Source: a virus (lineage: Duplodnaviria > Heunggongvirae > Uroviricota > Caudoviricetes). Taken from it: a stretch of 47,226 nt of DNA. The stretch lies in IMG/VR virus record IMGVR_UViG_2737471818_000007. One strand, given 5' to 3'. The position numbers and the translations under genes were made by a program. The notes below the pieces were generated by a model that was given only the letters and a program-made list of their open reading frames with translations, did not search any database and was not told where the DNA came from. This document shows, in pieces, positions 3,653 to 46,682 of this stretch; the first letter of the stretch is position 1, and the number at the start of each line of letters is the position of its first letter.

Positions 3653-6600
3653 TCAGACCACGCTGATGCCCAGCGCCTGTTTCTTAATCACCATAACCTG
3701 CACATCGCTGGCAAACGTATCCGGCGGAATATCTGCCGAATGCCGTGTGGACGTAAGCGTGAACGTCAGGATCACGTTTCCCCGACCCGCTGGCATGTCA
3801 ACAATACGGGAGAACACCTGTACCGCCTCGTTCGCCGCGCCATCATAAATCACCGCACCGTTCATCAGTACTTTCAGATAACACATCGAATACGTTGTCC
3901 TGCCGCTGACAGTACGCTTACTTCCGCGAAACGTCAGCGGAAGCACCACTATCTGGCGATCAAAAGGATGGTCATCGGTCACGGTGACAGTACGGGTACC
4001 TGACGGCCAGTCCACACTGCTTTCACGCTGGCGCGGAAAAGCCGCGCTCGCCGCCTTTACAATGTCCCCGACGATTTTTTCCGCCCTCAGCGTACCGTTT
4101 ATCGTACAGTTTTCAGCTATCGTCACATTACTGAGCGTCCCGGAGTTCGCATTCACGTTACCGCTGATATCGGCATTTTTCGCCGTCAGCCGCCCATCCG
4201 GTGTCAGGGAAAATGCCGGAGGATTACCGCCGCTGGTAATGGTCGGAGCCGTCAGGCGTTTCAGGAACACGTCGTTCATGAATATCTGATCGCCCTGACC
4301 AACAAACATTGGTCTTGTGTTGCCATTAGACGGATCAATAAACGCGATACGGTTAGCGGCAACCAGGAACTGGCTCAGTTTGCCTTCCTCCGTGTCCTCC
4401 ATGCTGAGGCCAATACCCGCGACATAATGTTTGCCGTCTTTGGTCTGCTCAATTTTGACGCCCCACATGGCATTCCACTTATCGTTGGCGTCCTTCCACT
4501 CTTTCGAAAACTCCTCCAGTCTGCTGGCGTTATCCTCCGTCAGCTCGACTTTTTCCAGCAGCTCCTTGCCGAGATGGGATTCGGTTATCTGGCCTTTGAA
4601 AAAATCCAGGTAACCTTCCGCATCATCGCTCGCCCGACCGACGGCCTCCACGAATGCCGATTTGCCAACGGTGTTCACACTGCGGATATAAAAGTAATAA
4701 TCATGGCCCGGTTTGATATTGATACTGGCGGCTATCCAGTACAGCCCCGTGCCAAGGTAGCGGGCTGTGGTTTCAACCTGCCTGATATCGGTAATCCGCG
4801 TTTCGGAGAACCAGAACTCAAACTGTACCGTCGGATCGTAAACCGCAAGATGCGGCGTGGCGGTTATCTGAAAATAGCCCGGCATCAGCTCAATCCGAGA
4901 CGGCGCTGCCGGTGCGGCAATCCGGAACGATACCGATGCCGGATCGCCCTGCTGTCCCCACGCATTTACCGCCCGGACTGTCAGCCTGTAGTTCCCCAGC
5001 GCCAGTTGCCTGAAGCGGTATGTGGTTTCCGTCGTCCGGGCCGTGCTGACCAGCCGCTCACTGCCGTCGTCCGCTGTTACGGTCAGGCGAAGCAGGAAGC
5101 TCACCCCCTTCACCACCTTCGGTGTGTCCCAGCGCGCCAGCACCTGATATTCCCCGCTGTCTGCGGTGACTTCTGCGGTCAGGTGCTGCACCGCTGGCGG
5201 CGTGACACCATTTACCGTGCCGCTCTGGTCGCCGTCAAAGTGCGCCCCGTTATCCACGATGGCCTCTTTTTCCGGTACATGCTGCACGGCGGTGATGGCA
5301 TACGTGCCGTCGTCGTTCTCACGGATACTCACGCAGCGGAACAGGCGCTGGCGCAACGTCGGCAGCTTCAGCCCCCATACGCTGTATTCAGCAACGCCGT
5401 CAGGAACACGGCTCACTTTCACCTTCACGCCGTCGGTGACGGACTGAACCTCCACGCTGACCGGACTCCCCTGCCCGTCAACCAGGCTTATCAGCGTGGT
5501 GCCGGAAGATGGCAGCGTGATTTCACGGTCGAGCGTCAGCGTCCGGGTCTGGCTGTTTACCGCCAGCACGCGCCCGCCGGTGCGGATACCGGCATAGTCA
5601 TCATCGCAGATTTCAATGACATCGCCCGGTACATGGCGAAGCCCTTCGGCACCCACGCTGAAGTCCACGGTCTGCGTTTCCAGCAGTTCTGTTTTAATCA
5701 GCCACAGCCCGGCGCGGTGTGCCTGCCCCCGGCTGGTACAGCCAAAGGCATCCATCTTCGTAACATTACGACCGTAACGGGCAATGGCCTGCGTATCTTC
5801 AACAAGCTCTGTCGCCGTCTCCCAGCCGTTATTCGGGTCAATCCAGTTCACCTCAACGGCATTATGGCGGTCCTTCAGGGCGCTGAAGCTGTAGCGGAAC
5901 GGCGCGCCATCATCCGGCATCACCACATTACTGCGGTTATAGGTCCACGCCTTATCCGACGGTCGGTCCTGCACGAACGTCAGCGTCTGCCCGTTCCATA
6001 CCGGCATACAGCGCATCGCCGAGCAGAAATCGCTGAGCACATCCCACGCCTTACGCTGTGTGGTCAGGTACGCATTACAGGTGATGCGCGGCTCCGTGCC
6101 GCCAAAGCCGTCCGGCACTGACTGGTCGCAGTACTGGCCGATGACATACAGCGCCCATTTATCCACATCCGCCGCACCAAGACGTTTCCCCATGCCGTAG
6201 CGCGGATGGGTCAGCATATCCCACAGACACCAGGCCATGTTATTGCTGTATGCTGGTTTAAACGTTCCGTCCCAGATACCGCTGTATTGCCGCGTCTGCG
6301 GGTTATAGTTCGACGGCACCTGCAGAATGCGCCCGCGAAGATGATAATTACGACTCACCTGCTGGCTGCCGAACTGCTCCGAGTCCACCTGTACACCGAC
6401 CAGTGCCGTGTTCGGGTAGCCCTGTTTCACATCGATGATTTCGGTGTATGACGACCAGAGCGTTTTGTTCTGCAGCTGGTCTGTAGTGCTGTCCGGCGTC
6501 ATTCTGCGCATCCGGATATTAAACGGGCGCGGCGGCAGGTTACCCACCACCACCGAGGCCAGATACTGCGAGGTGGTTTTGCCCTTAATGGTGATGTCTT

Positions 6601-7051
6601 TTTCCGTCACCCAGCCACCATTACGCTGTATCTGAACCAGCAGACGGACTTCCGACGGATTCCTGTCACCCTTTGAGGTGGTTTCCACCAGTGCCTGCAC
6701 ACCGAAGGTAAAGCGCAGACGGTCGATGTTTGCAGACGTGATGGTCCGGGTAATCGGCGTGTCGTACTTCACTTCCGTACCCAGCACCGTCTCGGAGCCG
6801 GAGGATTCAAATCCCTCCGGCGGTGTCTGCTCCTGCTCACCTGCCCGGAACACCACCGTGACGCCGGATATATTGGTATTCCCCTCACTGTCCAGCACCG
6901 GCGTACTGTTCAGCAGCACGCTTTTTAATCCATCCACCGGACCTTCAATCGGCCCTTCACTGATCGCATCAATCACGCTCAGTAACTGCGTGGATTTCAG
7001 GTTATCTTTCGCTTCGCGAGGAGTGTGCCCCTTGCTGCCACCTTTACCCAT
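3653..7051 (-). CDS. J: host specificity protein J (central tail fibre)
   Basis: 1132-aa ORF, ATG at 7049-7051; sequence is collinear with lambda gpJ throughout (recalled). Confidence 0.95.
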
Positions 7052-7111
7052 TTATCTGGCTCCATTAACAACAAAACCGCCCGCAGGCGGTTTCACATAA
7101 AACGTTTTACA

Positions 7112-7759
7112 TCAGCGACCAATCACCACAACCTGACCACCATCACCCTCATCAGCAGTACTGATACTCTGTGAAATCACACGCGACCCCACACGCATCT
7201 CACCATACAGTACCGGTAACGGATTCCCCTGGGCGATCATATTATCCAGCGAGGAAAAAAAGGTGTTCTGTTTGCCGTTATCCGCGGACTCCATGGACGG
7301 CGTTTTGATGGCCGGTGTCAGCATCTGCGCTATCCCGCCGAGGATCATACTGGCCCCGGCGGCATACATCCCCGTAAGTGCTGCCGCACCCAGCCAGCCC
7401 GCGGGATTCCACCAGGCTACCGCAACAACCACAGCCCCCAGGATGGTCTGAAAAATTCCGCCATGCTTTGCACCGGCAAGCCGGGGAACAATGTGGATCA
7501 CCGTACCGTCCGGTAACGGTTCATGGAGCTGTGCCGTTACTCCGGACTCGCTGACATCCCGCCCGGCGATACGTACCTGATACCAGCCGTCACTCAGTTT
7601 CTGACGAAACGACGGAAGTTGTGTGGCCAGCGCCCGGATGGCTTCAGCCCCCGTTTTCACACGAAGGTCGATGCGGCGACCAAATCGTTGCAAATCCCCG
7701 TAAAGGCAGAGGCGTGCCATGCCCGGTGCCGCCAGAGGGAGTGTGTGCGTCGCTGCCAT
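7112..7759 (-). CDS. I: tail assembly protein I
   Basis: 215-aa ORF resembling lambda gpI; its 5' end overlaps the 3' end of K by about 100 nt as in lambda. Confidence 0.9.
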   Translation of the reverse strand: MAATHTLPLAAPGMARLCLYGDLQRFGRRIDLRVKTGAEAIRALATQLPSFRQKLSDGWYQVRIAGRDVSESGVTAQLHEPLPDGTVIHIVPRLAGAKHGGIFQTILGAVVVAVAWWNPAGWLGAAALTGMYAAGASMILGGIAQMLTPAIKTPSMESADNGKQNTFFSSLDNMIAQGNPLPVLYGEMRVGSRVISQSISTADEGDGGQVVVIGR

Positions 7760-8400
7760 TTTTCTGTATACCTCTCTCGTTTACTCAGTTGTTCAGGAAT
7801 ATGGTGCAGCAGCTCGCCGTCACCACAGTAAATGGCGGCATGATTCGGCACCGATGAACCAAAGCAGCACAGCAGCACATCGCCCGGCTGCGCCGCTGAC
7901 AGGGTGACCGGGTAAAAGCCGGTATCTGCCATGTTGTCCAGGTAAAGATTCTGACCGTTACGCCACCAGTCATCCTCACGATGAAAATCCGGTATCTCAA
8001 TTCCTGCCAGATGATAAGCGTCCCGGAACAGCGTGTAACAGTCCGTCACCCCGTGATCAAAGCGCCTTCCGGTCAGATGTGGCACGCAGCGGAATTTATG
8101 GAGAGCCCCCCGACAGACCAGCCACCACGGCAAATCACTCTGTACCTGCAGCTGACGGTCGGCTTCACTCAGCCAGGGCAGACCACCGGGATGGCTGTGG
8201 ACCAGCGCCACCACCTCGCCCTGTATTTGTGCCCGCAGCCAGTCTTCCGGTACCATCCGGAAACACGCCTCCGGAGTACCGGAGATATTCACGCAGGGAA
8301 GATACCTTTCCCCCTCCGGCGTTCTCACCACGAAGCCGCACGACTCCGCTGGCGCACATCGCCGGGCGTGCGCCAGAATCACTGATTCAGTCTCTGTCAT
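7657..8400 (-). CDS. K: tail assembly protein K (MPN/JAB plus NlpC/P60-like)
   Basis: Track ORF 7657..8475 trimmed to the ATG giving MTETESVILAHARRCAPAESCGFVV (lambda gpK N-terminus), which lies just after the L stop. Confidence 0.85.
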   Translation of the reverse strand: MTETESVILAHARRCAPAESCGFVVRTPEGERYLPCVNISGTPEACFRMVPEDWLRAQIQGEVVALVHSHPGGLPWLSEADRQLQVQSDLPWWLVCRGALHKFRCVPHLTGRRFDHGVTDCYTLFRDAYHLAGIEIPDFHREDDWWRNGQNLYLDNMADTGFYPVTLSAAQPGDVLLCCFGSSVPNHAAIYCGDGELLHHIPEQLSKRERYTEKWQRRTHSLWRHRAWHASAFTGICNDLVAASTFV

Positions 8401-20623: not shown

Positions 20624-22540
20624 TTATCCTCCACTCAGAGCAGCCGCGATTTCTTCAATAGTCATTTCATCGTCGTCCTGTTCATCTCTTCTGGCGCGGG
20701 CCAGTGCATCCAGATCCAGTTGCCACCGCTGAACGGAAATGCGCAGCGCTGCATAGGCATACACCAGACAGTCCAGAGCTTCATTACGCCGTTTTCTGGC
20801 ATCCCACTGGAGTTTCACCCGCCCGTTCACAACTTTTTCAACCAGCTCTTCTGCCACGAGTTGTTTAGCTTCAACATCAGAAAAAATGTCCGGGTTATCC
20901 GGAAAACGGAAGGTATACGGTGCGACTTCACTGGCAGATACCACCGGCAGGGCAAAACGCGCATACAGCATTTCCTTGACGGTATCGGAACCCACCTCAC
21001 ACAAAAACACCCCACGCTGGTTTCGCTTTTTTGGCATGGTGATCACCGGCTTGCCGTACACCGACGCCCCTTTGATGGGGAGCACAAAAAAAGTGCCGTG
21101 TTTTCTGGATCGCTGATACACAATGTCCTGGTCAATACCACCGGTATCCCAGCAGACGCGGGAAATGGAAATTTCAGTGCCATCTGCATGACGGTATTTT
21201 TTCCGGATCACGGCATCAACGCGTTTAAGGGTGTCCTCATCTTCCGGTCTCCCCATGATGATCTGCTTGTCAATCAGAAAAGCTTCTTCGCCAGGAGCCC
21301 AGCCCCAGACATAAATCTCATAACGGTTTTTCTGAGAGTCGATCCCTGCGGTCAGGTAAACCACCCGCAGGGGAACCTGCGCATCATAGTGGCAGACTTT
21401 TTCCAGCAATAACTCAAAGCTCAGTTTTTCTGCCACAGCCTCTTCATAAGGCTCCCCCAGCGTGGTGTTAATGAACGTCTTGACGCCATTCGGATCCTTC
21501 AGTGCATCAAGCCAGTCATAAACAATCTGTACCCAGGTGGTGAACGGGCTGTATGCCGTCCAGATGTGGTACGAGATTGAGCGCGGTGGCGGGATTTCCT
21601 CATCACCGGCGCTGTAAAATGTCAGACCGTCACGCGTCCACATCCCGGTATTGTCACAAATCCACCGCCCGTCGGTCTGGTCAAGTTCCGACTGACGGAT
21701 CGCGCAGCCATTATGTTCACACAGGTAATACACCGTCTCCGGCTTGCCCTTCTCCCATTTCAGGCCAAAGGTTGTCGCATCATCGCCAAACTTCAGATAC
21801 TGGGCTTCACCACAATGAGGGCATGGCACATAAAACCGCATAAAATGTGCAGATTCGTTCGCGGCTTTTTCAATCTGGCAAAAACCTTTAATTTTGGGCG
21901 TTGAGCCGCGTATGGATTTAGGCCATACCGAACCTTCGATACGCTTATCGCCAAGCAGAGTTGGTGAACCTTCTTTTTCCACATCCGGTTCAAACGAGGA
22001 GAGTTCGTCATAGCAGACCACATCCACAGATTTTTCACGGTAGTTTTTGGCAGCAGCTCCGCCCAGACACCAGAATCCCACACCGGAGGAGAAACGTTTC
22101 AGGGTAAGCGTGTTGTCCCGATGTTTTCTGCCAAACCACGGAGCCAGCTCCAGTAATACAGGAACGTCTCTTATCGTTGGTTCGACATGGGATTTCATAA
22201 AATCTTCTGCCGCAGAATCTGTCGGCTGAAAAAGCAGGCTGTTACGGGATTTGTGTTCAATAAAATAAGCCTCCACCCCCAACAGCATTTTGGTGTAACC
22301 AACACGCGCCGATTTAATCAGATTAACGGTGCGGATCCGGTCATTCCCCATGCTGTTCATGATGGCAACCTGAAACGGCAGTGTTTCCCATTGCCCGGGA
22401 GTATATGAAGACTCTTTTGGCAGATAATAATGCTGATCAGCCCACTGAACTGTCGTCAGTGGTACCGGAATATTGAGAGATACAAGCCCTGTTGCTATCG
22501 CACCGGCTGCATTAGCTGCCTTCTGTGCGTCTGAAATCAT
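20624..22540 (-). CDS. A: terminase large subunit A
   Basis: Track ORF begins at TTG 22543, ATG at 22540; collinear with lambda gpA ([14 protein letters not shown].., [18 protein letters not shown].., CWDTGGID..). Confidence 0.95.
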
Positions 22541-23060
22541 CAATCCACCCGCCTACGTTCTCACCAGCTTTAGCTGCAACGTTGGAGGCTTTTGCGATTT
22601 CAGTTTTCACCACATCAAGGTGTGACGGTGAAATATCCGGATATTTACGCTGTAATGTCAGCGGCACACGTACAAGTATCCCCGAAATCTCCTGTGCCAC
22701 ACGTTGCAGAATGAAGGTAAACAATTCCGTTTCCAGTACCAGCCCTTCTTCGCGGGCATTTTTCAGTTCCTGTGCATCAGCCTGTGCTTTTGTGAGTCGG
22801 TAGCGCTCATAGTCAATGGTGCCGGGTTGTAAATCTGATTCCGCAGCCGCACGCAAATCCTCGGTCTCTTTGCGGAGTTTTTCGTTTTCAATATCGGCTT
22901 CGCGCTGCGCATACCACTGAATTGCCATGGCGGTATCAAATACAGATTCAACCCCCTTACTACCACCAGAGACACAAGAGAGCCCCTGAGACTGCCAGCG
23001 TTCAATCGTTCGTGGATCCACGTTGAAAATTTCCGCGAGCTTCTTTTTATTAACCTTCAT
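22512..23060 (-). CDS. nu1: terminase small subunit Nu1
   Basis: Track ORF trimmed to the ATG at 23060 ([12 protein letters not shown].., cf. lambda Nu1 MEVNKKQLADIF); overlaps the A start. Confidence 0.9.
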
Positions 23061-23214
23061 AAAACATTTCCATATCAAATGCAGGGTCCGACATGGAAGT
23101 GCTCAAAGACGTCTTTTTCGGGCACTTTCATGTCGGACCTTTTACGGATGTGATTGATGAAAAAACAATGAGTTATACACGAGAAGTACCGACACGCTTT
23201 TTCCCGAAAAATTT

Positions 23215-27056: not shown

Positions 27057-28106
27057 TTAACCCGCCTGCTCCATTATTTCACCAACGGTCTGTTCAAAAC
27101 GTTCTTTTTCCAGTTCCACGCCAGTCGCCCTGCGTCCCAGTGACAGTGCCGCTTTTATTGTCGCCCCCGACCCCATAAAAAAATCGGCAACCAAATCACC
27201 GGGGCGACTGCTGGCCTCAATTATCTGCCGCAACATATCGGCTGGTTTTTCACAGGGATGTTTGCCCGGATAATACTGCACGGGCTTGTGCGTCCAGACA
27301 TCCGTATACGGAACGGCAACTGATACGGAAAAATAACGCCGCAGGGATTTGTACTCCTTCAGCAGGCTGGCATATTGCCGGTTCAGTTCACTGTATGTGC
27401 TGACCAGCTGGTGGTGTGGCTTTTCCAGTTCCCCGCGTTGATGTTTTTCTGCTGCAACACGCGCAAACAACGCCTGTAATTTCAGATAATCACCTTCGTT
27501 CGGCAACTGCCACTGACTGATACCAAACCAGTGCGAAGCCATGTTTTTCTTTCCGGTGGCTTCCGCTATCTGTTTTGACGTTATTCCCAGTGATTCACGC
27601 GCATCACGAAAGTAAGAAATCAGCGGGGCCATGACGTGCTGTTTTAGCTCGCTCCCCTTTGCCGCATAGCCGTCATTTTTGGGCCGGTATGGCCCCTGAT
27701 AATGTTCTGCAAACAGAATGCGTTCTGTTGCCGGGAAATACGCCCGCAGGCTTTCCTTGTTGCATCCGTTCCAGCGTCCGGACGGCTTCGCCCAGATAAT
27801 GTGGTTCAGCACATTAAAGCGCTCACGCATCATGATTTCGATATCAGATGCCAGGCGATGACCACAGAACAGGTAGAGACTTCCGGCAGGTTTCAGTACC
27901 CGCCAGAACTGCGCCAGACACTGTTCCAGCCATTTCAGGTAATCATCGTCGCCCTTCCACTGGTTATCCCAGCCCTCGGGCTTCACTTTAAAGTATGGCG
28001 GGTCTGTGACTATCAGATCGACTGAGTTTTCCGGTAAGGTCTGGATAAATTCCAGGCAATCAGCGTTGATTAACTCACAACTGGATATTTTTACAGTATT
28101 AACCAT
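27057..28106 (-). CDS. DNA methyltransferase, beta-class N6-adenine/N4-cytosine type
   Basis: 349-aa ORF with ATG at 28106; motif IV DPPY near the N-terminus (LIVTDPPYF) and motif I FxGxG near the C-terminus (DFFMGSGAT). Confidence 0.8.
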   Translation of the reverse strand: MVNTVKISSCELINADCLEFIQTLPENSVDLIVTDPPYFKVKPEGWDNQWKGDDDYLKWLEQCLAQFWRVLKPAGSLYLFCGHRLASDIEIMMRERFNVLNHIIWAKPSGRWNGCNKESLRAYFPATERILFAEHYQGPYRPKNDGYAAKGSELKQHVMAPLISYFRDARESLGITSKQIAEATGKKNMASHWFGISQWQLPNEGDYLKLQALFARVAAEKHQRGELEKPHHQLVSTYSELNRQYASLLKEYKSLRRYFSVSVAVPYTDVWTHKPVQYYPGKHPCEKPADMLRQIIEASSRPGDLVADFFMGSGATIKAALSLGRRATGVELEKERFEQTVGEIMEQAG

Positions 28107-28713: not shown

Positions 28714-30117
28714 ATGGCTCGTAAAGATTTCACTCAGCAAATAGACATTCCAATTCAAAATATCCTCCTCGATACTGAAAATGCCAGAATCCGCGCAGGT
28801 AGAGATCAAAACAACTGCATTTCAAGGATATTGCGTAAAGAAAACCAGATGCTTGTATTGATGGAGGATATTGCAGAAAACGGACTTACAACCATGCCCA
28901 TATTGGTTATGCCTCACTCAGAAGGTAAATGGGTAGTTAAAGATGGTAATAGACGAATAACAGCTTTAAAACTATTAAATAACCCAGATAGTTGCCCGGA
29001 ACCACATTTAATTCCGAAAATAAAAAAAATAAAAGAAAAATATCATGACAACATACCTACTACTGTTGACTGTTTATCAAGTGACAATTTTGAAGCAGTA
29101 TTTAAAGAGATAATAGCAAGGCATTCTGGAGCACGTAATGGTGCTGGTCAATATGACTGGTTTGCATATATGCGAACAATTTATCTATTAAATAATGGAC
29201 ATCCAACTGATTATAAAAGAGCTGGTCAATATATGTGTTGGGCTGAACAAGAAGGCATTGATGTAGATGATGATTTCCCAATCACTAGTGTAGCCAGATT
29301 CTTTACTAGAGATAATCTTCTATTGTTAGGATTTGAAGTGGAAAATGATAAATTGAAGCCAATACTCTCAAAAGAAAAAATAATAAAAATGGCCTCAAAA
29401 ATTAATAGCGACTTTTCTTCAAAAATAGTTGATGTTAACACCGTCTTTAATCCTAGCGATGCAAAGAAATATCTTTGCTCGGTAAGAAAATATGCAGGAA
29501 TAATAGATGATTTTGCTTACAATAGTGATGACACAGAACAAGAAAATAATAAAAAAGAAGAAACAAATAAATGTTCCTCTCCATCTGAAGTGGATAACAA
29601 TAATGCGCAATCAGATAGTAAGAGTGACGCACCTGTACTACTAAAAAAACACGCAGGTAGAGGAGGTACACCTAAAAAAATACCAGCAGAGCGAAATAAA
29701 ATTTTTGGTAGAGGAAAGCCTGGAATTACTATTCCTGAAAATGAGACTAAAATAAGAACTATAATCTCAGAACTTAGGCAATTAGATGTAAAAAAAACAA
29801 CTCTTGCAACTGCATTTCTTCTTCGGGCACTGCTGGAGTTAAGTGATAAAGAATATAGAACAATTAACAAGTTGCAAGATAAAAAAAGCTTAGCTAAAAA
29901 TATTGCTAATAGCGCAGATCATATGTTGAAAAATAATCTAATCACTGACTCAGAACACCATATAATATCAGCTTATACTCGCGGCGAGCAAGGAACTGTG
30001 CACATTGAAACTTTACAAAAATTAATTCACAGAGAGACACATCACCCAGATTATATCTCAATTAATGTTTTTTGGGACAATATAGGTTGTTTTGTTCGAG
30101 CTTGTTGGAAAGATTAA
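28714..30117 (+). CDS. ParB/Srx-fold (DGxRR motif) N-terminal domain protein, unknown function; candidate nuclease or defence protein
   Basis: 467-aa ORF with ATG at 28714; N-terminus has ParB-like motifs (ILLDTENARIR; GLTTMPILVMP; VVKDGNRRITALKLL); Lys-rich low-complexity linker; His-rich C-terminal domain; very AT-rich. Confidence 0.65.
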   Translation: MARKDFTQQIDIPIQNILLDTENARIRAGRDQNNCISRILRKENQMLVLMEDIAENGLTTMPILVMPHSEGKWVVKDGNRRITALKLLNNPDSCPEPHLIPKIKKIKEKYHDNIPTTVDCLSSDNFEAVFKEIIARHSGARNGAGQYDWFAYMRTIYLLNNGHPTDYKRAGQYMCWAEQEGIDVDDDFPITSVARFFTRDNLLLLGFEVENDKLKPILSKEKIIKMASKINSDFSSKIVDVNTVFNPSDAKKYLCSVRKYAGIIDDFAYNSDDTEQENNKKEETNKCSSPSEVDNNNAQSDSKSDAPVLLKKHAGRGGTPKKIPAERNKIFGRGKPGITIPENETKIRTIISELRQLDVKKTTLATAFLLRALLELSDKEYRTINKLQDKKSLAKNIANSADHMLKNNLITDSEHHIISAYTRGEQGTVHIETLQKLIHRETHHPDYISINVFWDNIGCFVRACWKD

Positions 30118-30163: not shown

Positions 30164-31018
30164 TCATTTCTTCTTCATAGAGGGAGTGCTATGAATATTT
30201 AAATTTTTATATACCATAAGTTCTGTAACTCTTGGCCTTGTCAAATGAGTTGAGTAATGTAAAGAAAACTCCACAATTTTTTCGTCTTTATATAACTTCC
30301 TGATTTCTTCACAATTATCATATGTAACAATTATCGGAGTGGAAATATCCTTAACCTTTTCAGAAATTAATTTATGATCATGAGGTTTATAATGATTTCT
30401 ATAAAGCTGGCTACCTTTTTCATAATATGGAGGATCAAGATAAATTAGAGATTTTTTTGGTAGTGTATTTTTTATACTACCAATCAACTCACAGGCATCC
30501 AAATTATAAAGATCAATAAATTTTTTCATTCCACCTATTTTTTTTACTCTTTCACATAGTTTCTTCTTATTATACCTAGCATCAATCTTATATTTACCAC
30601 TCTGTTCTTTTCCTCCTATAACCCCACCTGATAAGATTCCAGAACGATTGGTTCGATTGAGAAAAAACGTAGCAAAACCAATAGATAAAATATCATGTTT
30701 AGTATAATTGTTTATTACATCTTTTTGCTTATACCAATTATCCATTGTTACTTCTGTTTCATTTATCAATGAAATAAATTTATCATTCTCATTTAACACT
30801 GACCACCAAAATGAGTAAACAACAGGATCCAAATCATTAATAATGACATGATCTACATATCCATGCATTAGCAAATACAATGCAGCTCCTGCGCCGCCAG
30901 CATATGGCTCCACATAATACCCACCACTAATTCCGTTATACCTCAGCAGTTCTGATATCCAAGGCCCCATCCTCCCTTTTCCACCGGGATAACGTAATGG
31001 GGTAAAAAATGTAGTCAT
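30164..31018 (-). CDS. DNA adenine methyltransferase, D12 (Dam-like) class
   Basis: Track ORF 30164..31054 trimmed to the ATG at 31018 (MTTFFTPLRYPGGKGRM..); motifs YPGGK, VEPYAGGAG, FLNRTNRSG, YLDPPYY parallel E. coli Dam; AT-rich; convergent with the ParB-like gene. Confidence 0.8.
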   Translation of the reverse strand: MTTFFTPLRYPGGKGRMGPWISELLRYNGISGGYYVEPYAGGAGAALYLLMHGYVDHVIINDLDPVVYSFWWSVLNENDKFISLINETEVTMDNWYKQKDVINNYTKHDILSIGFATFFLNRTNRSGILSGGVIGGKEQSGKYKIDARYNKKKLCERVKKIGGMKKFIDLYNLDACELIGSIKNTLPKKSLIYLDPPYYEKGSQLYRNHYKPHDHKLISEKVKDISTPIIVTYDNCEEIRKLYKDEKIVEFSLHYSTHLTRPRVTELMVYKNLNIHSTPSMKKK

Positions 31019-31105
31019 GCTGAACCTCATACAAAACCAGGAAATTAAATGCATTTTACCCTAAATCACATCAATTCTAAATAACTAAATTAACAGTATT
31101 AAAAT

Positions 31106-33682: not shown

Positions 33683-34168
33683 TTAGTTTTGCTGTTCTAT
33701 TTTAAGCTTGATAGTTTCATACAAAACAATAGTTGCGCCTGTTTTACATAATTCCCGACTGTCATACGCACGAGACCAATAACACAACCAATTTTCAAGC
33801 TCTTCTCGTGTATAAATTTTACAGGCCAGCCCCTCAGCCATCTCTACAACTTCATCGCCTGGCGCGGTTAATTCGTATCCATTTAACAATAAAAAAACCG
33901 CACCAGCCATCATTGCTGTGCGCTTGTTTGCATTGGCAAATGGATGATTCTGAATCAGACTTTCAATCAATACCGATGCCAGTACAAACATGTCGTTGGT
34001 TTGCTCATACCATCGAACCATACTGGGACGAGACTGAGAAGAACTTAAATTATCAACACTCAGCACACCAACAGGTTCATCTGGTGTTTGAAGCTCAATT
34101 AAAAGGCGATTGATTTCAGTAAGATCATCAACCGAGAGGTAGTGCACTCCTTCAACAATCTCAGCCAT
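33683..34168 (-). CDS. Fic/Doc-family toxin (Doc-like)
   Basis: Track ORF begins at TTG 34177, ATG at 34168; contains HPFANANKRTA matching the Doc motif HxFx(D/N)(A/G)NKR. Confidence 0.75.
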   Translation of the reverse strand: MAEIVEGVHYLSVDDLTEINRLLIELQTPDEPVGVLSVDNLSSSQSRPSMVRWYEQTNDMFVLASVLIESLIQNHPFANANKRTAMMAGAVFLLLNGYELTAPGDEVVEMAEGLACKIYTREELENWLCYWSRAYDSRELCKTGATIVLYETIKLKIEQQN

Positions 34169-34186
34169 AGAGCACAATACCCATCA

Positions 34187-34576: not shown

Positions 34577-34732
34577 TTACTCCTCAGATTCGTAAGCTGT
34601 GAAGACAGCGACCTCCGTCTGGCCGGTTCGGATTCGTACCTCGCAGAGGTCTTTCCTCGTTACCAGTGCCGTCACTATGACGGTTAAACAGATGACGATC
34701 AGGACGATTAACATCGCCTTTTGCTGCTTCAT
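34577..34732 (-). CDS. hok: Hok/Gef-family type I toxin
   Basis: 51-aa ORF MKQQKAMLIVLIVICLTVIVTALVTRKDLCEVRIRTGQTEVAVFTAYESEE, classic Hok; below the ORF-track size cutoff. Confidence 0.85.
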   Translation of the reverse strand: MKQQKAMLIVLIVICLTVIVTALVTRKDLCEVRIRTGQTEVAVFTAYESEE

Positions 34733-34790
34733 AGCCTGCTTCTCCTTGACCTTTCGGTCCGTAAGAGGCTAACCTACATGTGTCTAGCAT
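34584..34790 (-). CDS. mok: Mok-like overlapping reading frame (translational coupling for hok)
   Basis: 68-aa ORF in another frame, starting upstream of hok and ending inside it, as in the R1 hok/mok/sok locus. Confidence 0.55.
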   Translation of the reverse strand: MLDTCRLASYGPKGQGEAGYEAAKGDVNRPDRHLFNRHSDGTGNEERPLRGTNPNRPDGGRCLHSLRI

Positions 34791-34986
34791 GAAATTGGCC
34801 TCAGATTAATGTTAAGCGTCTTGCAGGACGCGTAATGTTAACTAGGGCTTTTCTCTATCTGCCTTTGGTGTTCATGCCTGAGGCAGATAGCCTCAAGCAC
34901 CCGCAGCAATTCTACTTAAGTTAGATAAGCTTTTCTATGGTATTCTCTCAGCGTCCCGTAAATACAGTCTCGGCTCATCATTTTTA

Positions 34987-41632: not shown

Positions 41633-42099
41633 CGGCTTGTTTTTCTTCTTTTAATATATTGCGAATTGTAATAACTGAATTAGCCGCCTCTGAAGGGGAT
41701 GACATTTTGCCAGCCCGAATTAACTCAACTGTTAAGTTCAAAGCTGCAACAGATGGATAGGTAAATGGGTTAATTAACTTGTCTGACATTTTATCCTCCA
41801 TTGAGGTTCTGAGTTAAAAATGGAGACCAACACGCAGCCACATGTGGTCATGCGCCGGACACGGATAAGAATCCGGCACTGACAGTTTACTGAAAGGATA
41901 TATCACTGAAAAATCAGGGCATAACGCGAAAGCGCACGGCGAAGTTCGTCTCACTGTACGGTGTCGTTAAATTTAATTCGACCGTGCGCTTCCGGTTGTG
42001 GCACTCCGCGAAATGGCGCGGCGGTACGTATGGCGGGGTTATTCCTTCCCCCTGTTGAGGACACCGGGTTGTCAGGTTGACCATACGCCTGAGTGACAA

Positions 42100-42175
42100 C
42101 CCCGCTGCAACAACCCATGTTGATTACCTTTTGGCGGCATCAGTTTCATTGCTGGCTGATGTCCGTCCTTTTTAA
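42100..42175 (+). ncRNA. dicF: DicF-like small RNA (divergent variant)
   Basis: Located upstream of dicB; TTTGGCGGCATCAGTTTCATTGCTGGCTGATGTCCGTCCTTTTT (hairpin plus U-run) followed by the TAAAGTGAATTTTGTGATG.. sequence that I recall flanking K-12 dicF; the core differs from K-12 dicF. Confidence 0.4.
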
Positions 42176-42356
42176 AGTGAATTTTGTGATGCGGTGAATG
42201 CGGCTCAGCGCACGCGGAACAGTTAAAAAGGCCAGTTGACTTCCGTATTGGTTCTTATGGGTGGGTTCTCTGTATCCGGCGTTAATTGTTAACTGGTTAA
42301 CGTCACCTGGAGGCACCAGGCACCGCATCACAAAATTCATTGTTGAGGACGCGATA

Positions 42357-42539
42357 ATGGAAACGTTATTACCAAACGTCAATACGTCTGAAGGTTGTTT
42401 TGAAATTGGTGTCAGAATCAGTAACCCTGTATTTACTGAAGATGCCATTAATAAGAGAAAACACGAACGGGAGCTATTAAATCAAATATGCATTGTTTCA
42501 ATGCTGGCCCGTTTACGCCTGATGCAAAAAGGACGCTGA
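42357..42539 (+). CDS. dicB: DicB cell-division inhibitor
   Basis: Track ORF 42261..42539 trimmed to the ATG at 42357 after GAGGA; METLLPNVNTSEGCFEIGVRISNPVFTEDAINKRKHERELLNQICIVSMLARLRLMQKGR. Confidence 0.9.
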   Translation: METLLPNVNTSEGCFEIGVRISNPVFTEDAINKRKHERELLNQICIVSMLARLRLMQKGR

Positions 42540-42541
42540 CA

Positions 42542-42745
42542 ATGAATACAGCATTTGCACTCGTTCTGACAGTTTTTCTTAATACAGGCGAACCAGTCGA
42601 TCTTGTTATTGGTATACATGACTCAATGAAAGAATGCATGGCTGCCGCAGCGGAACAGAAAATTCCCGGCAACTGTTATCCGGTTGATAAAGTTATTCGC
42701 ATGGACAATAACGAAATCCCGGCAGGACTTAAAACAGCACCGTAA
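42542..42745 (+). CDS. ydfD: YdfD-like protein
   Basis: Track ORF 42488..42745 trimmed to MNTAFALVLTVFLNTGEPVDLVIGIHDSMKECMAAAAEQKIPGNCYPVDKVIRMDNNEIPAGLKTAP; starts 3 nt after the dicB stop. Confidence 0.7.
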   Translation: MNTAFALVLTVFLNTGEPVDLVIGIHDSMKECMAAAAEQKIPGNCYPVDKVIRMDNNEIPAGLKTAP

Positions 42746-42825: not shown

Positions 42826-45264
42826 ATGAGTAAAGTCTTTATTTGCGCCGCCATTCCGGACGAACAGGCAATAAAGGAAGAAGGTGCAGTCGCTGTAGCC
42901 ACTGCCATTGAAGCCGGCGACGAACGCCGCGCCCGTGCCAAATTTACCTGGCAATTCCTGGAGCAATATCCGGCTGCTCAGGACTGCGCTTATAAATTTC
43001 TTGTTTGCGAGGATAAACCCGGCATGCCCCGCCCTGCCATCAACTCCTGGGATACCGAATATATGCTGGAAAACCGCTGGGATGAAGAGTCAGCCTCTTT
43101 TGTCCCGATCGAACCAGAATCCGATCCGATGAACGTCAATTTTGACAAGCTGTCCCTTGAAGTACAGAACGCGGTCCTGGTTAAGTTCGGTACATGTGAA
43201 AACATCACCGTTGATATGGTGATTAGTGCACAGGAATTGTTGCAGGAGGACATGGCAACATTCGACGGGCATATCGTTGAGGCATTGATGAAAATGCCTG
43301 AAGTTAACGTCATGTATTCAGAACTAAAGCTGTTCGCCATCGGGTGGGTTAAACATAAATGTAAGCCGGGTGCAAAATGGCCTGAGATCCAGACAGAATT
43401 ACGCACCTGGAAAAAACGTCGCGAAGCCGAACGCAAAGAAACCGGGAAATACACGTCTGTTGTTGATCTTGCCCGCGCCAGAGTCAACCGGCAGCACACT
43501 GAAAACTCAGCAGGAAAAATCAACCCCGCCACTGCCGCCATTCGTCGCGAATACAAGCAGACATGGAAAACGCTGGATGAAGAACTGGCCTACGCTCTGT
43601 GGCCTGGCGATATTAATGCCGGAAACATTGACGGCAGCATCCATCGCTGGGCAAAAAATGAAGTTATCGACAAAGATCGCGAAGACTGGAAGCGCATTTC
43701 CGCATCAATGCGCAAACAACCCGATGCCGTCCGCTACGACCGTCAGACTATTTTTGGCCTTGTCCGTGAGCGTCCGATCGACATTCACAAAGATCCCGTG
43801 GCACTGAACAAATACATCACTGAATACCTGGCGACAAAGGGCGTGTTTGAGGATGAAGAAACAGACCAGAACACTGCTGATATTCTCCAGCCGTCAGCAG
43901 CACAAACTGATGCAGTGGAAACTGAAGTATCTGATACCCAAAAAAATGAAAGCACGCTGGAAACTGAACCATCTGTAGAGCGTGAGGGGCCGTTCTACTT
44001 CCTTTTCACCGATAAGGATGGCGAAAAATATGGTCGTGCAAACAAACTTTCTGGTCTGAATAAGGCGCTGGCTGCAGGGGCTACTGAAATCACGAAAGAA
44101 GAATATTTTGCCCGCAAAAACGGCACATACTCAGGTTCACAACAAAATACTGGTGCATCTGACACGATCGCACAACCAGAGCCGGTAAAAGTTACCGCTG
44201 ACGAAGTAAACAAAATTATGCAGGCAGCCAATATCAGCCAGCCTGACGCCAATAAGTTGCTTGCTGAATCACGTGGTGAATTTGTTGCAGGGATTAGCGA
44301 CCCGAATGATCCGAAATGGGTGAAGGGGATTGAAACCCGCGATTCAGTGAATCAGAACCAGCAAGAAACGGAACAGAACGACCAGAAAGCGGAACAAAAC
44401 AGCCCAAATGCGCAACAGGAGCCGGAAAAAGCCTGCACCGCCTGCGGTCAGACCAGCGGCGGCAACTGCCCTGATTGTGGTGCGGTGATGGGCGACGCAA
44501 CGTATCAGGAAACCTTTAATGAAGAAAATCTGGATGAATCTCAGGAAAAAGATCCGGAGGAAATGGAAGGCGCTGAACATCCACACAAGGAGAATGCTGG
44601 CAGCTATCAGGACCACGCCAGCGATAGCGAAACTAGCGAGACGGCAGATCCCTTAATTGCGGTGAACGGTCATCACGTTATCACATCCACCAGCAGAGTG
44701 TGGTACCACCTGATGATCGACCTTGAAACGATGGGTAAAAAAAGTAATGCCCCCATCGTGGTTATTGGTGCTGTGTTCTTCGATCCGCAGACCGGGGAAA
44801 TCGGGCCAACATTTTATATCGTTATCAGCCTGGTTGACGCTATGGACACGGGTGCTGTTCCTGATGGTTCCACCATCGAATGGTGGCTTGCTCAGTCCAG
44901 CGAAGCCAGATCTGCAATTTTAGTTGATCAGGTAAAACTGGTTGACGCTCTTATTCAATTTCGGGAATTCATCAATGAGTACTCGGATGAAAAATTCGTT
45001 CAGGTATGGGGCAATGGTGCAACTTTCGACAACACTATTTTACGAACCTCGTACGAACGCCTGAACATCCCCTACCCGTGGCGTTACTACAACGATCGCG
45101 ATGTACGTACAATCGTTGAACTGGGAAAAACTATCGGCTTCGATGCCAGAACAGTTATTCCATTTGAAGGCGTGCGCCACCATGCGCTGGATGATGCCCG
45201 TCACCAGGCGAAATACGTTACAGCCACGATACAAAAACTGATCCCGAATCAGGCTGATTTTTAA
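42826..45264 (+). CDS. large protein with C-terminal DEDDh 3'-5' exonuclease domain and a Cys4 zinc ribbon
   Basis: 812-aa ORF; C-terminus has Exo I (MIDLETMG), Exo II (VWGNGATFDNTIL) and Exo III (HHALDDARHQAKY) motifs; CTACGQTSGGNCPDCG zinc ribbon; sits in the recombination-module position. Confidence 0.75.
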   Translation: MSKVFICAAIPDEQAIKEEGAVAVATAIEAGDERRARAKFTWQFLEQYPAAQDCAYKFLVCEDKPGMPRPAINSWDTEYMLENRWDEESASFVPIEPESDPMNVNFDKLSLEVQNAVLVKFGTCENITVDMVISAQELLQEDMATFDGHIVEALMKMPEVNVMYSELKLFAIGWVKHKCKPGAKWPEIQTELRTWKKRREAERKETGKYTSVVDLARARVNRQHTENSAGKINPATAAIRREYKQTWKTLDEELAYALWPGDINAGNIDGSIHRWAKNEVIDKDREDWKRISASMRKQPDAVRYDRQTIFGLVRERPIDIHKDPVALNKYITEYLATKGVFEDEETDQNTADILQPSAAQTDAVETEVSDTQKNESTLETEPSVEREGPFYFLFTDKDGEKYGRANKLSGLNKALAAGATEITKEEYFARKNGTYSGSQQNTGASDTIAQPEPVKVTADEVNKIMQAANISQPDANKLLAESRGEFVAGISDPNDPKWVKGIETRDSVNQNQQETEQNDQKAEQNSPNAQQEPEKACTACGQTSGGNCPDCGAVMGDATYQETFNEENLDESQEKDPEEMEGAEHPHKENAGSYQDHASDSETSETADPLIAVNGHHVITSTSRVWYHLMIDLETMGKKSNAPIVVIGAVFFDPQTGEIGPTFYIVISLVDAMDTGAVPDGSTIEWWLAQSSEARSAILVDQVKLVDALIQFREFINEYSDEKFVQVWGNGATFDNTILRTSYERLNIPYPWRYYNDRDVRTIVELGKTIGFDARTVIPFEGVRHHALDDARHQAKYVTATIQKLIPNQADF

Positions 45265-45325
45265 TGTTCAACCGTCGCCAGTTGTAGTTGGTATTCTGCA
45301 ACTGGCGCGTTCCGGAGTGATAACC

Positions 45326-45595
45326 ATGAGCGAACAGTACCTGATAACGCTCGATGAGTGGAAACCCAAACGGTTCAGTCTCCCAATAACAAACACTACC
45401 CTGGTGAAATACGGAAAACTTGGATACATCGTACCAAGACCACAAAAAATTCGTGGACGTTGGCTGATAGATCGCCGGGCAGTATTTGTTGGACCTGGTG
45501 AAACGGGAATTGCGCCGGAAATTCATACTGGCGATGATGATGCACTGAAGGAGATTTTAACTCATGTCACCGAGGCCACGAAAAAACAGCACTGA
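45326..45595 (+). CDS. excisionase-like protein
   Basis: Track ORF 45317..45595 trimmed to MSEQYLITLDEWKPKRF..; small basic protein immediately upstream of and overlapping int. Confidence 0.6.
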   Translation: MSEQYLITLDEWKPKRFSLPITNTTLVKYGKLGYIVPRPQKIRGRWLIDRRAVFVGPGETGIAPEIHTGDDDALKEILTHVTEATKKQH

Positions 45596-46682
45596 CGTAG
45601 CCGGTCTTTACGAAAAGTTTGATCGCAGAACTGGCAGAGTTTACTACCAGTATAAAAACCCTGTGACTGGAAAATTTCACGGACTCGGAACAGACAAAGG
45701 CAAAGCTGAAAGAATCGCTTCCACAGCCAATCAGCGAATAGCTGCAGCAGAAGCCGAATATTTCATGCGCAAAATTGATGAAAGTCCATCAGCAACAAAA
45801 CGTCGGGGTATCAGATTAAAGGCATGGGTTGATCGATATCTGAAAATACAGGACACGCGACTGAAAAATGGAGATATTGCAGCTACAACTCACAAAGAAA
45901 AAACTCGAATGGCTGCATACCTGGTTTCCCGTCTGGGAAACCACCCATTGAAAGAACTGGAAGTAAGAGACTTTGCATTAATACTGGATGAGTGGCTGGA
46001 TAAAGACATGGTCAGCACAGCGAGAGTAAATCGTGGATTATGGGTTGATATTTATAAAGAAGCACAGCATGCAGGGGAAGTTCCTCCTGGATGGAATCCT
46101 CCGGAGGCTACCCGTAAACCGATCCCTAAAGTAACCAGAGCCAGACTCACCCTGGAAGACTGGCAAAAAATTTACAACGCAACGCCTGAAAAACACTTTA
46201 TCCGTAACGCAATGCTTCTTGCGATTGTTACTGGTCAGCGCCGTGATGACATTTGCCATATGCGTTTTTCAGATGTGTGGAACGAACACCTGCATATTAC
46301 CCAGGGAAAAACTGGAATGCGTCTGGCGTTACCGCTGACGCTACGCTGTGATGCCATTGGGATATCGCTAAAAGAAGTGATTGATGGATGCAGGGACAGA
46401 ATATTGAGTCCATACCTGATTCATAGTCGGCACCAAAAACAACCAAAACCAATGAGTAAAGACAACCTGAGCGATTACTTTGCCAAAGCGCGGGAGCTGG
46501 CTGGAATAATTCCACCAGCAGGAAAAACTCCGCCAACATTTCATGAACAACGTTCTCTATCAGAACGGCTGTACCGTGCACAGGGTATCGATACAAAAAC
46601 ATTACTGGGACATAAAGTCCAGGCAACCACCGATCGTTATAACGATACTCGTGGTCAGGAATGGGTTAAATTGGTTGTTTGA
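45564..46682 (+). CDS. int: tyrosine integrase (lambda Int family)
   Basis: 372-aa ORF with ATG at 45564; C-terminal catalytic region ..TLLGHKVQATTDRYNDTRGQ.. including the conserved tyrosine context. Confidence 0.9.
   Translation: MSPRPRKNSTDVAGLYEKFDRRTGRVYYQYKNPVTGKFHGLGTDKGKAERIASTANQRIAAAEAEYFMRKIDESPSATKRRGIRLKAWVDRYLKIQDTRLKNGDIAATTHKEKTRMAAYLVSRLGNHPLKELEVRDFALILDEWLDKDMVSTARVNRGLWVDIYKEAQHAGEVPPGWNPPEATRKPIPKVTRARLTLEDWQKIYNATPEKHFIRNAMLLAIVTGQRRDDICHMRFSDVWNEHLHITQGKTGMRLALPLTLRCDAIGISLKEVIDGCRDRILSPYLIHSRHQKQPKPMSKDNLSDYFAKARELAGIIPPAGKTPPTFHEQRSLSERLYRAQGIDTKTLLGHKVQATTDRYNDTRGQEWVKLVV

Follow-up and report, generated by a model that had tools for sequence, protein, structure and literature searches.

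Several described systems lie close to the gene analysed here, an open reading frame (ORF) of 812 amino acids (aa) in a viral DNA stretch of 47,226 nucleotides (nt) (Caudoviricetes; IMG/VR virus record IMGVR_UViG_2737471818_000007), which we call the window. The structure of the T4 exonuclease DexA has been solved, and both DexA and its E. coli homologue EcD are experimentally DNases; EcD degrades T4 DNA containing 5-hydroxymethylcytosine (5hmC) in vitro and, when expressed from a plasmid, protects cells from T4 (Kang et al. 2025, PMC12153337). Zheng et al. 2025 (PMC12315714) and Bobay et al. 2013 (PMC3784561) describe, in their main texts, a class of Chi-rich lambdoid phages that have no Rec module and seem to depend on RecBCD of the host. 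The main text of PMC12315714 also records that DnaQ-type 3′-5′ nucleases occur in lambdoid phages, where they count as members of the Rec module when packed among Rec genes, as in epsilon34, and are not counted when they lie very near int. The remaining point of reference is the Rac prophage nuclease RecE together with ydfE of the Qin prophage; our literature searches on ydfE returned nothing functional, and those on Rv2179c with phage nothing relevant. Here, we describe the 812-aa gene as the intact orthologue, judged by its sequence, of the K-12 Qin pseudogene ydfE, in which a partly RecE-related scaffold is joined to a DexA-type DEDDh exonuclease domain.

The ORF has the sequence GAGG 10 nt 5′ of its ATG, and its limits are exactly those given in an initial annotation made from the letters alone. 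That annotation had also recognised a DnaQ-like DEDDh exonuclease from three C-terminal motifs, a call that is borne out by the alignment of five catalytic residues with DexA. The motifs DLET, GNGATFD and HHALDDAR provide D632 and E634 (Exo I), D735 (Exo II), and H785 and D790 (Exo III), which correspond to D7, E9, D119, H186 and D191 of T4 DexA. In an alignment of 103 sequences, comprising 101 diverse homologues, T4 DexA and the 812-aa protein, these residues are kept in 101 (D632), 97 (E634), 99 (D735), 102 (H785) and 101 (D790) cases. The Pfam family PF16473 (Rv2179c-like) covers aa 628-800 with an E-value of 2e-67 (226.7 bits against a cut-off of 27), the match spanning positions 2-175 of the 177 in the profile. 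In a sequence search of the PDB, the T4 DexA entries 8KEL and 8KEN were the only matches, at 30% identity. An AlphaFold2 (AF2) model of aa 381-812 reached a predicted local distance difference test score (pLDDT) of 93-98 over aa 626-805, and Foldseek on the modelled domain ranked DexA 8KEL first (E 6e-12), followed by RNase T, REXO2 and Orn, with ERI and 3′hExo also among the matches; the model and its top matches have the RNase H-like DEDD fold. We assign aa 626-812 as a DEDDh 3′-5′ exonuclease with an intact two-metal-ion catalytic pentad. Its chemistry, hydrolysis in the 3′-5′ direction starting at a free 3′ end, has good support from homology, and the polarity opposite to that of lambda Exo and RecE, to which the initial annotation had drawn attention, stands as a prediction from the homology of the domain.

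What does this domain sit on? The N-terminal part had been described as acidic and unassigned; acidic it is (pI 4.67 for aa ~1-610), but it can be assigned. The ~610 aa outside the exonuclease match K-12 YdfE, the PHROG families 2082 and 5943, and the Pfam families YdfE_N (PF27430) and YdfE_C (PF27432); they also match the NCBIfam RecE model in its non-catalytic part. The two Pfam assignments are the precomputed annotation of an identical protein (P0001). Over residues 1-256 the protein shares 86% identity with K-12 Qin YdfE (b1577), and the PHROG 2082 profile matches the protein end to end (aa 1-812, 1644.6 bits). With K-12 Rac RecE, BLASTP aligned aa 279-611 to RecE 294-591 only and found nothing past RecE residue 591. 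Inside this region aa 474-611 share 69.6% protein identity and 80.8% DNA identity with RecE 454-591, and the DNA homology ends at aa 611. The NCBIfam RecE equivalog NF007259 matched aa 219-612 only (model positions 243-603) with 254.8 bits, a partial match that falls below the equivalog cut-off of 1269. By BLASTP and DNA comparison, no counterpart of the PD-(D/E)XK nuclease of RecE was found, and the DEDDh domain occupies that place. Because aa 474-611 are RecE-like and the PD-(D/E)XK domain is replaced, we read the 812-aa protein as a RecE relative whose nuclease domain has been swapped and whose scaffold combines a YdfE-type with a RecE-like part.

The assignment of the N-terminal region by profiles and AF2, a check suggested in the initial annotation, yielded the families just listed, the kinship with RecE in aa 279-611 and several folded blocks. 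Two independent AF2 runs covering the parts of the protein gave confident blocks at aa 1-206 and 245-340, and low confidence at aa 207-244, 344-384 and 438-625, the last of which includes the RecE-like segment and its zinc ribbon. The RecE-like segment, aa 474-611, is mostly disordered by prediction, and a small domain at aa 385-437 is flanked by acidic disordered linkers, as seen from segment charges calculated along the protein. The initial annotation had put the ribbon into the C-terminal ~200 aa; in fact C537-C551 lie within the RecE-homologous segment, ~75 aa N-terminal of the exonuclease domain. Rac RecE carries the counterpart CNACGQTGGDNCPDC at aa 517-531, and we take the Cys4 ribbon to be a RecE feature and not part of the exonuclease domain. 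It is missing from many long relatives, and AF2 gave no confident model of it. The extended motif CxACGxxGGxxCPDCGxVxGDATY (window 44434-44505) also forms the C-terminus of a Dam-like methyltransferase (locus L119, 4465-5445 on the minus strand; likewise L117 and L122), which lies directly 3′ of the stand-alone EcD gene on a small integrase-bearing element. Since the methyltransferase next to EcD carries the ribbon, ribbon and DEDDh domain co-occur either fused or as neighbours.

The same scaffold is found with other C-terminal modules. A search with the full-length protein gave near-identical E. coli copies only, and diversity was taken from a search of 1.84 billion cluster representatives, which returned 11,579 relatives, many of them stand-alone DEDDh proteins of ~180-200 aa; many database entries for the family are fragments. 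Local BLAST and family scans distinguished four kinds of long fusion. One protein (P0125) consists of Rac RecE aa 1-592 (88% identity) followed by the DEDDh domain and is a clean nuclease-domain swap, while P0135, P0141 and P0124 join Exonuc_VIII, the Pfam family of the RecE N-terminus, to the DEDDh domain. In P0136, YdfE_N/C precedes a PD-(D/E)XK (DUF3799) domain, and the overlapping gene 3′ of it belongs to the RecT family (Pfam 2e-36), comparable to recT after recE in Rac; BLASTP of Rac RecT against this gene was not significant, while the Pfam match is clear. Finally, P0143, P0138, P0144, P0168 and P0227 combine YdfE_N/C with a C-terminal module of a third type, which belongs to PHROG 7838 (annotation 'exonuclease'), by eye resembles Rad52/Sak (FGPVGIGWGWE ... 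KKSLTDAIKKCLSGLGF), scores sub-threshold with Pfam Rad52_Rad22 (E 0.01) and found no match in a PDB sequence search; its Rad52-like nature is suggestive only. An overlapping Sipho_Gp157 gene follows these fusions (loci L010 and L011, at 5001-7927), and they possibly correspond to what the main text of PMC12315714 calls 'RecE-2 proteins without a nuclease domain'. The scaffold is apparently common to at least three kinds of effector module, namely a DEDDh domain, a RecE-type nuclease with RecT, and possibly a Rad52-like module. The features of the window are collected in Table 1.

Table 1. Position and basis of assignment of the features of the window.
Feature	Position	Strand	Evidence or remarks
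812-aa ORF	42826..45264	+	Complete, ATG start; 91 kDa, pI 4.75
DEDDh 3′-5′ exonuclease domain, DexA / Rv2179c-like family, aa 626-812	44701..45261	+	Pfam, PDB sequence match, AF2/Foldseek
RecE-homologous central segment, aa 474-611	44245..44658	+	Rac RecE aa 454-591
Cys4 zinc-ribbon motif CTACGQTSGGNCPDC (C537, C540, C548, C551), aa 537-551, then GAVMGDATY	44434..44478	+	Same motif in Rac RecE
YdfE_N/YdfE_C region, aa 1-340	42826..43845	+	Alpha/beta domain then helical blocks (AF2)
Small beta-hairpin/helix domain, aa 385-437	43978..44136	+	AF2 pLDDT ~90 in two independent runs
Chi octamer GCTGGTGG, codons S-T-S	44687..44694	-	30 nt past end of RecE homology, 26 nt before Exo I codons
DicB and DUF1482 (YdfD-like) genes, 5′ neighbours in same operon	42261..42745	+	Pfam; synteny as K-12 Qin
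Excisionase and lambda-type integrase genes, 3′ neighbours	45317..46682	+	Pfam
PD-Lambda-5 gene A	28714-30117	+	PADLOC E 3.5e-74
PD-Lambda-5 gene B, D12-class adenine methyltransferase	30164-31054	-	PADLOC E 3.5e-115; convergent with gene A

The gene order of the window (DicA-like repressor, DUF1391/ydfA, small ORFs, DicF-like region, DicB, DUF1482/ydfD, exonuclease, xis, int) is that of Qin. The DEDDh form is the last gene before xis-int in every context looked at, and a stand-alone 189-aa DEDDh gene takes the same pre-xis position in another prophage. The initial annotation had spoken of the recombination-module position; the gene lies at the int-proximal end of the operon and not at the canonical mid-operon Rec position. 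Its observation that the prophage has no exo/bet or RecE/RecT-type pair agrees with our Pfam scans of the non-structural ORFs of at least 90 aa in 23-47 kb and of the early-left small ORFs, which found no such pair, nor any annealing protein or relative of Gam or Abc2. No annealing-protein gene was found beside the DEDDh form in E. coli N61 and BCE049 and phage Evi, in four more distant contexts, or in the complete phages Tritos and HannyBb, and 80 IMG/VR loci, gathered with the alignment of the central segment as query, had no RecT match and no annealase-size plus-strand ORF between repressor and DEDDh gene. Altogether, none of ~90 loci held an annealase partner of the DEDDh form. Neither the adjacent single-strand annealing protein (SSAP) nor the 5′-3′ nuclease of a two-component SynExo system is found here, the polarity of the domain being opposite by homology.

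A scan by consensus found no sigma-70-like promoter on the plus strand between repressor and exonuclease gene; because of this, the exonuclease gene is most simply seen as part of the early-left operon with the lethal dicB, which would be repressed in lysogens. A separate promoter for expression in the lysogen was considered and rejected, since the same scan gave none. The DicF-like small RNA region (~42040-42300) aligns with K-12 dicF, from which it differs by several substitutions and by the loss of ~10 nt (TTCTGGTGAC) toward the 5′ side; at the gathering score, Rfam gave no DicF match there, and a terminator-like hairpin lies at 42136-42163.

The window is rich in Chi. The octamer occurs 12 times against 1.76 expected, a ~7-fold excess, and none of 100 shuffles reached 12. 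All 12 sites fall in 25652-46519, in the arm bounded by cos (Nu1 at 22512-23078) and att, whereas the 23 kb of structural genes contain none. Of the 12, eight are on the minus strand, which, as derived from gene orientation, is the orientation active for RecBCD coming in from the right cos end. In Tritos there are 11 Chi sites, 9 of them on the top strand, and in HannyBb 7. With no SSAP or Gam in the Pfam scans and a Chi excess toward its right end, the window fits the class 'no Rec module, high Chi'. The site at the junction of the modules is present in 72 of 74 related loci (e.g. L001, L002, L014, L017 and L024), including some with different N-terminal types, and is not in K-12 recE; its conservation could reflect a coding constraint or the trace of a module exchange.

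The novelty implied in the initial annotation does not hold. Of 5426 complete E. coli genomes, 4797 gave a match in a whole-gene megablast, with at least 80% of the gene covered in 3221, and the DEDDh domain is present in 4186 of the 5426 (~77%; median 2 copies, maximum 8). A protein 100% identical to the 812-aa product (P0001) is found on 239 contigs of a public collection; identical NCBI proteins are named 'exonuclease' or '3′-5′ exoribonuclease', and PHROG 2082 and the Pfam families YdfE_N and YdfE_C already hold the family. Among phage records, 17 contain 80% or more of the gene, including Evi, mEp460_ev081, Tritos, HannyBb, PhiR42_1 and PPompW prophages. The gene is ordinary, very common and already catalogued, and int-proximal DnaQ-type nucleases of lambdoid phages are published in the main text of PMC12315714. 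Less common is the DEDDh allele of the window (44701-45261), which has only 7 records at ≥95% identity, the usual allele being ~73% identical in DNA, while for the N-terminal and central parts of the gene the identity to common alleles is 80-99%. Because a rare C-terminal allele is joined to common N-terminal and central ones, we consider the 812-aa gene a recent mosaic, as its alleles indicate.

How near is the domain to EcD? The EcD sequence was recovered from the published cloning primers through an exact search of viral contigs, with A78 present as published. EcD (189 aa) is 35% identical to aa 630-812 over 182 aa, almost without indels. The residues to which 5hmC recognition is assigned in PMC12153337 are not kept in the three-way and 103-sequence alignments: Y755 replaces DexA W152 and the EcD Trp, and K768/T769 replace DexA D169 and the EcD Glu, in a loop around D169 that aligns uncertainly and has D773 nearby. 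The tetramer residue DexA D90 (EcD A78) is kept as D707. Of the marks of HREX/EcD proteins, the DexA-like domain with its catalytic residues is present, and the 5hmC residues and the loss of the tetramer residue are not, with the same uncertainty of the loop alignment.

The window has further accessory features. A complete PD-Lambda-5 anti-phage system (28714-31054) sits in an island of low guanine plus cytosine (GC) content (GC 0.32-0.33 in 29-31 kb) between Q and the lysis genes. Close to the lysis genes, 27057-28106 on the minus strand encodes a second DNA methyltransferase (N6_N4_Mtase; PADLOC MTase_II E 4e-153). In the nin region, the minus strand carries a Fic/DOC-family protein (33683-34177) and a sok antitoxin RNA (34730-34902; Rfam, 108 bits), which implies a hok/sok-type toxin-antitoxin locus. 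The Rfam family IS009 matches 41-239 on the minus strand (225 bits), in the tail-fibre end of the window.

We propose, with a probability of about 0.5, that the gene encodes a modular early-left protein of a lambdoid prophage of Qin/DicB type, in which a DexA-type DEDDh effector has a 3′-end processing role during lytic growth. By analogy with DexA and EcD, aa 626-812 would remove nucleotides one at a time from free 3′-OH ends of DNA in a Mg2+-dependent reaction. Judging from its position, the gene would be silent in the lysogen and, upon induction or infection, be transcribed together with dicB/ydfD and xis/int, and the exonuclease would act alone, not as one half of an exonuclease/annealase recombinase. 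The N-terminal scaffold would supply targeting or oligomerisation, as presumably it does for RecE. In the weakest step of this scheme, the enzyme might process DNA 3′ ends during lytic growth of a phage reliant on host RecBCD/RecA and Chi, for instance by trimming 3′ tails and keeping ends usable by RecBCD, or by degrading unwanted 3′-ended DNA. Several points weigh against this proposal. The nuclease activity of the full-length protein is a prediction from homology; the family is named for an exoribonuclease, and a DEDDh sequence by itself cannot tell DNA from RNA substrates. The loci surveyed are mostly close E. coli relatives and not independent of one another, the negative result for a promoter comes from a consensus scan alone, and the Chi excess may merely reflect long prophage residence in E. 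coli. Moreover, 3′-5′ exonucleases usually inhibit recombination through the loss of 3′ tails, according to the main text of PMC12315714, which makes a role as RecBCD helper speculative.

The RecE-related scaffold raises the question of whether the protein is a recombination nuclease after all, a RecE replacement of opposite polarity that works with a partner in trans (RecA/RecFOR/RecBCD or the RecT/Bet of another prophage) or through annealing of 5′ tails. We hold this to be possible though doubtful. It would account for the shared RecE central segment, for the whole RecE N-terminal 592 aa in relatives and for the use of one scaffold with a RecE-type nuclease plus RecT or, possibly, with a Rad52-like module followed by Sipho_Gp157; most E. 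coli genomes hold several lambdoid prophages that could lend a partner (median 2 domain copies). Yet an adjacent annealing protein is found in none of the ~90 loci, the binding of RecT maps to the nuclease region of RecE, which is missing here, and 3′-5′ resection takes away the 3′ tails normally used by RecA and annealases. The main text of PMC12315714 can be cited on both sides, as its authors admit DnaQ-type nucleases packed among Rec genes (epsilon34) and leave int-proximal ones out of Rec modules. That the RecE/YdfE N-terminus is a general delivery scaffold, bringing a 5′-3′ nuclease, a 3′-5′ nuclease or a Rad52-like annealase to a common target (DNA ends, the replisome or RecBCD), with the DEDDh version conditioning ends for RecBCD-Chi in Rec-less, Chi-rich phages, is a broader idea that we regard as unlikely; if it were true, the junction Chi and the free-standing ribbon beside EcD would be traces of module exchange or coupling. 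A defence against superinfection of the HREX/EcD type, in which the nuclease would degrade the 5hmC DNA of incoming T-even phages and spare host DNA, seems unlikely to much the same degree. EcD, which shares 35% identity with aa 630-812, digested T4 DNA in vitro and, expressed from a plasmid, gave cells protection against T4 (PMC12153337); the gene also resides in prophages and is extremely frequent, single genomes carrying up to 8 copies. The residues assigned to 5hmC recognition are nevertheless not kept and D707 is, given the uncertain loop alignment; PADLOC has no model for the gene beyond a weak generic DEDDh match (E 0.005); the gene lies within a repressed early-left operon beside lethal dicB, with no promoter of its own by consensus scan; and EcD itself is stand-alone, sharing its operon with a methyltransferase gene within a small element that carries an integrase. 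Because the residues assigned to 5hmC are not kept, PADLOC offers no model and the prophage holds clear defence cargo in PD-Lambda-5, carried in a separate low-GC moron, we judge a defence role possible, yet less likely than one in the lytic cycle. For the anti-defence role raised in the initial annotation nothing in this analysis speaks, and an anti-defence enzyme degrading cyclic nucleotides or signals was rejected, as a DEDDh exonuclease needs a free 3′ end and the context lends no support.

If the substrate were RNA, the enzyme could resemble Rv2179c, RNase T or oligoribonuclease and act in the lytic cycle on RNAs of host or phage, or on short oligoribonucleotides, by trimming or degrading them. 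The name of the Pfam family, taken from the exoribonuclease Rv2179c, the structural matches that come next after DexA (RNase T, REXO2/Orn, ERI and 3′hExo) and the many copies named '3′-5′ exoribonuclease' in NCBI all point that way. We nonetheless find it improbable, in view of the two closest characterised relatives, DexA and EcD, which are DNases, of the fusion of the domain to a scaffold shared with a DNA recombination nuclease, of its exchange with DNA-acting modules, and of RNase T, which cuts DNA too. There is next to no chance that the gene is a decaying remnant or an annotation artefact without function. K-12 ydfE is indeed an IS2-truncated pseudogene, and many database entries are fragmentary, but here the 812-aa ORF is intact and identical on hundreds of contigs, its catalytic residues are conserved, its folded domains are predicted with high confidence, and the gene is carried by plaque-forming phages; the reading as pseudogene or artefact was rejected because the ORF is intact and conserved. 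The proposal of a lytic 3′-end processing role is the one we keep.

The gene is among the most widespread E. coli prophage genes. What the present analysis adds is a clearer anatomy, with a YdfE/RecE-like scaffold, a DexA-type swap and a ribbon in the RecE-like part, and a setting without an annealase in a Chi-rich, Rec-less genome. It could inform the role of the N-terminal 600 residues of RecE, which is relevant to linear-linear recombineering, and how lambdoid phages without a recombinase of their own manage replication-linked recombination with host RecBCD and Chi.

The likeness to Rac RecE (exonuclease VIII) extends from the gene order, in which a kil/dicB-type gene and the nuclease are followed by xis-int, to a homologous non-catalytic region with Cys4 ribbon and acidic linkers, and some relatives of the 812-aa protein hold the entire RecE N-terminal 592 aa. 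It differs in that the PD-(D/E)XK 5′-3′ domain of RecE (aa ~606-866) is exchanged for a DEDDh domain, the first ~280 aa are YdfE-type and no recT follows the gene. With K-12 YdfE it shares the synteny dicA-ydfA-...-dicF-dicB-ydfD-ydfE-int, whereas in K-12 IS2 truncates the gene after ~256 aa, and neither the RecE-like segment nor the exonuclease domain is left. The lambdoid phages described as having no Rec module and high Chi, as far as the main texts of PMC12315714 and PMC3784561 describe them, resemble our prophage in having no annealing protein or RecBCD inhibitor and Chi clustered in the right arm; with 1 Chi per 3.9 kb, our prophage is about as dense in Chi as the E. coli chromosome, while phage LLS is denser (1 per 1.86 kb), and those main texts give no account of a scaffold fusion with RecE homology and assign no role to int-proximal nucleases. 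T4 DexA is a stand-alone protein of 227 aa with extra loops from a virulent phage, whereas the domain described here is fused to a scaffold of 610 aa. EcD shares with it the short-type Rv2179c/DexA-like DEDDh domain and the residence on a mobile element; it differs in being stand-alone (189-196 aa), in keeping the Trp and the acidic residue, and in that the ribbon is borne by its neighbour, the Dam-like methyltransferase, while in the 812-aa protein ribbon and exonuclease belong to the same polypeptide.

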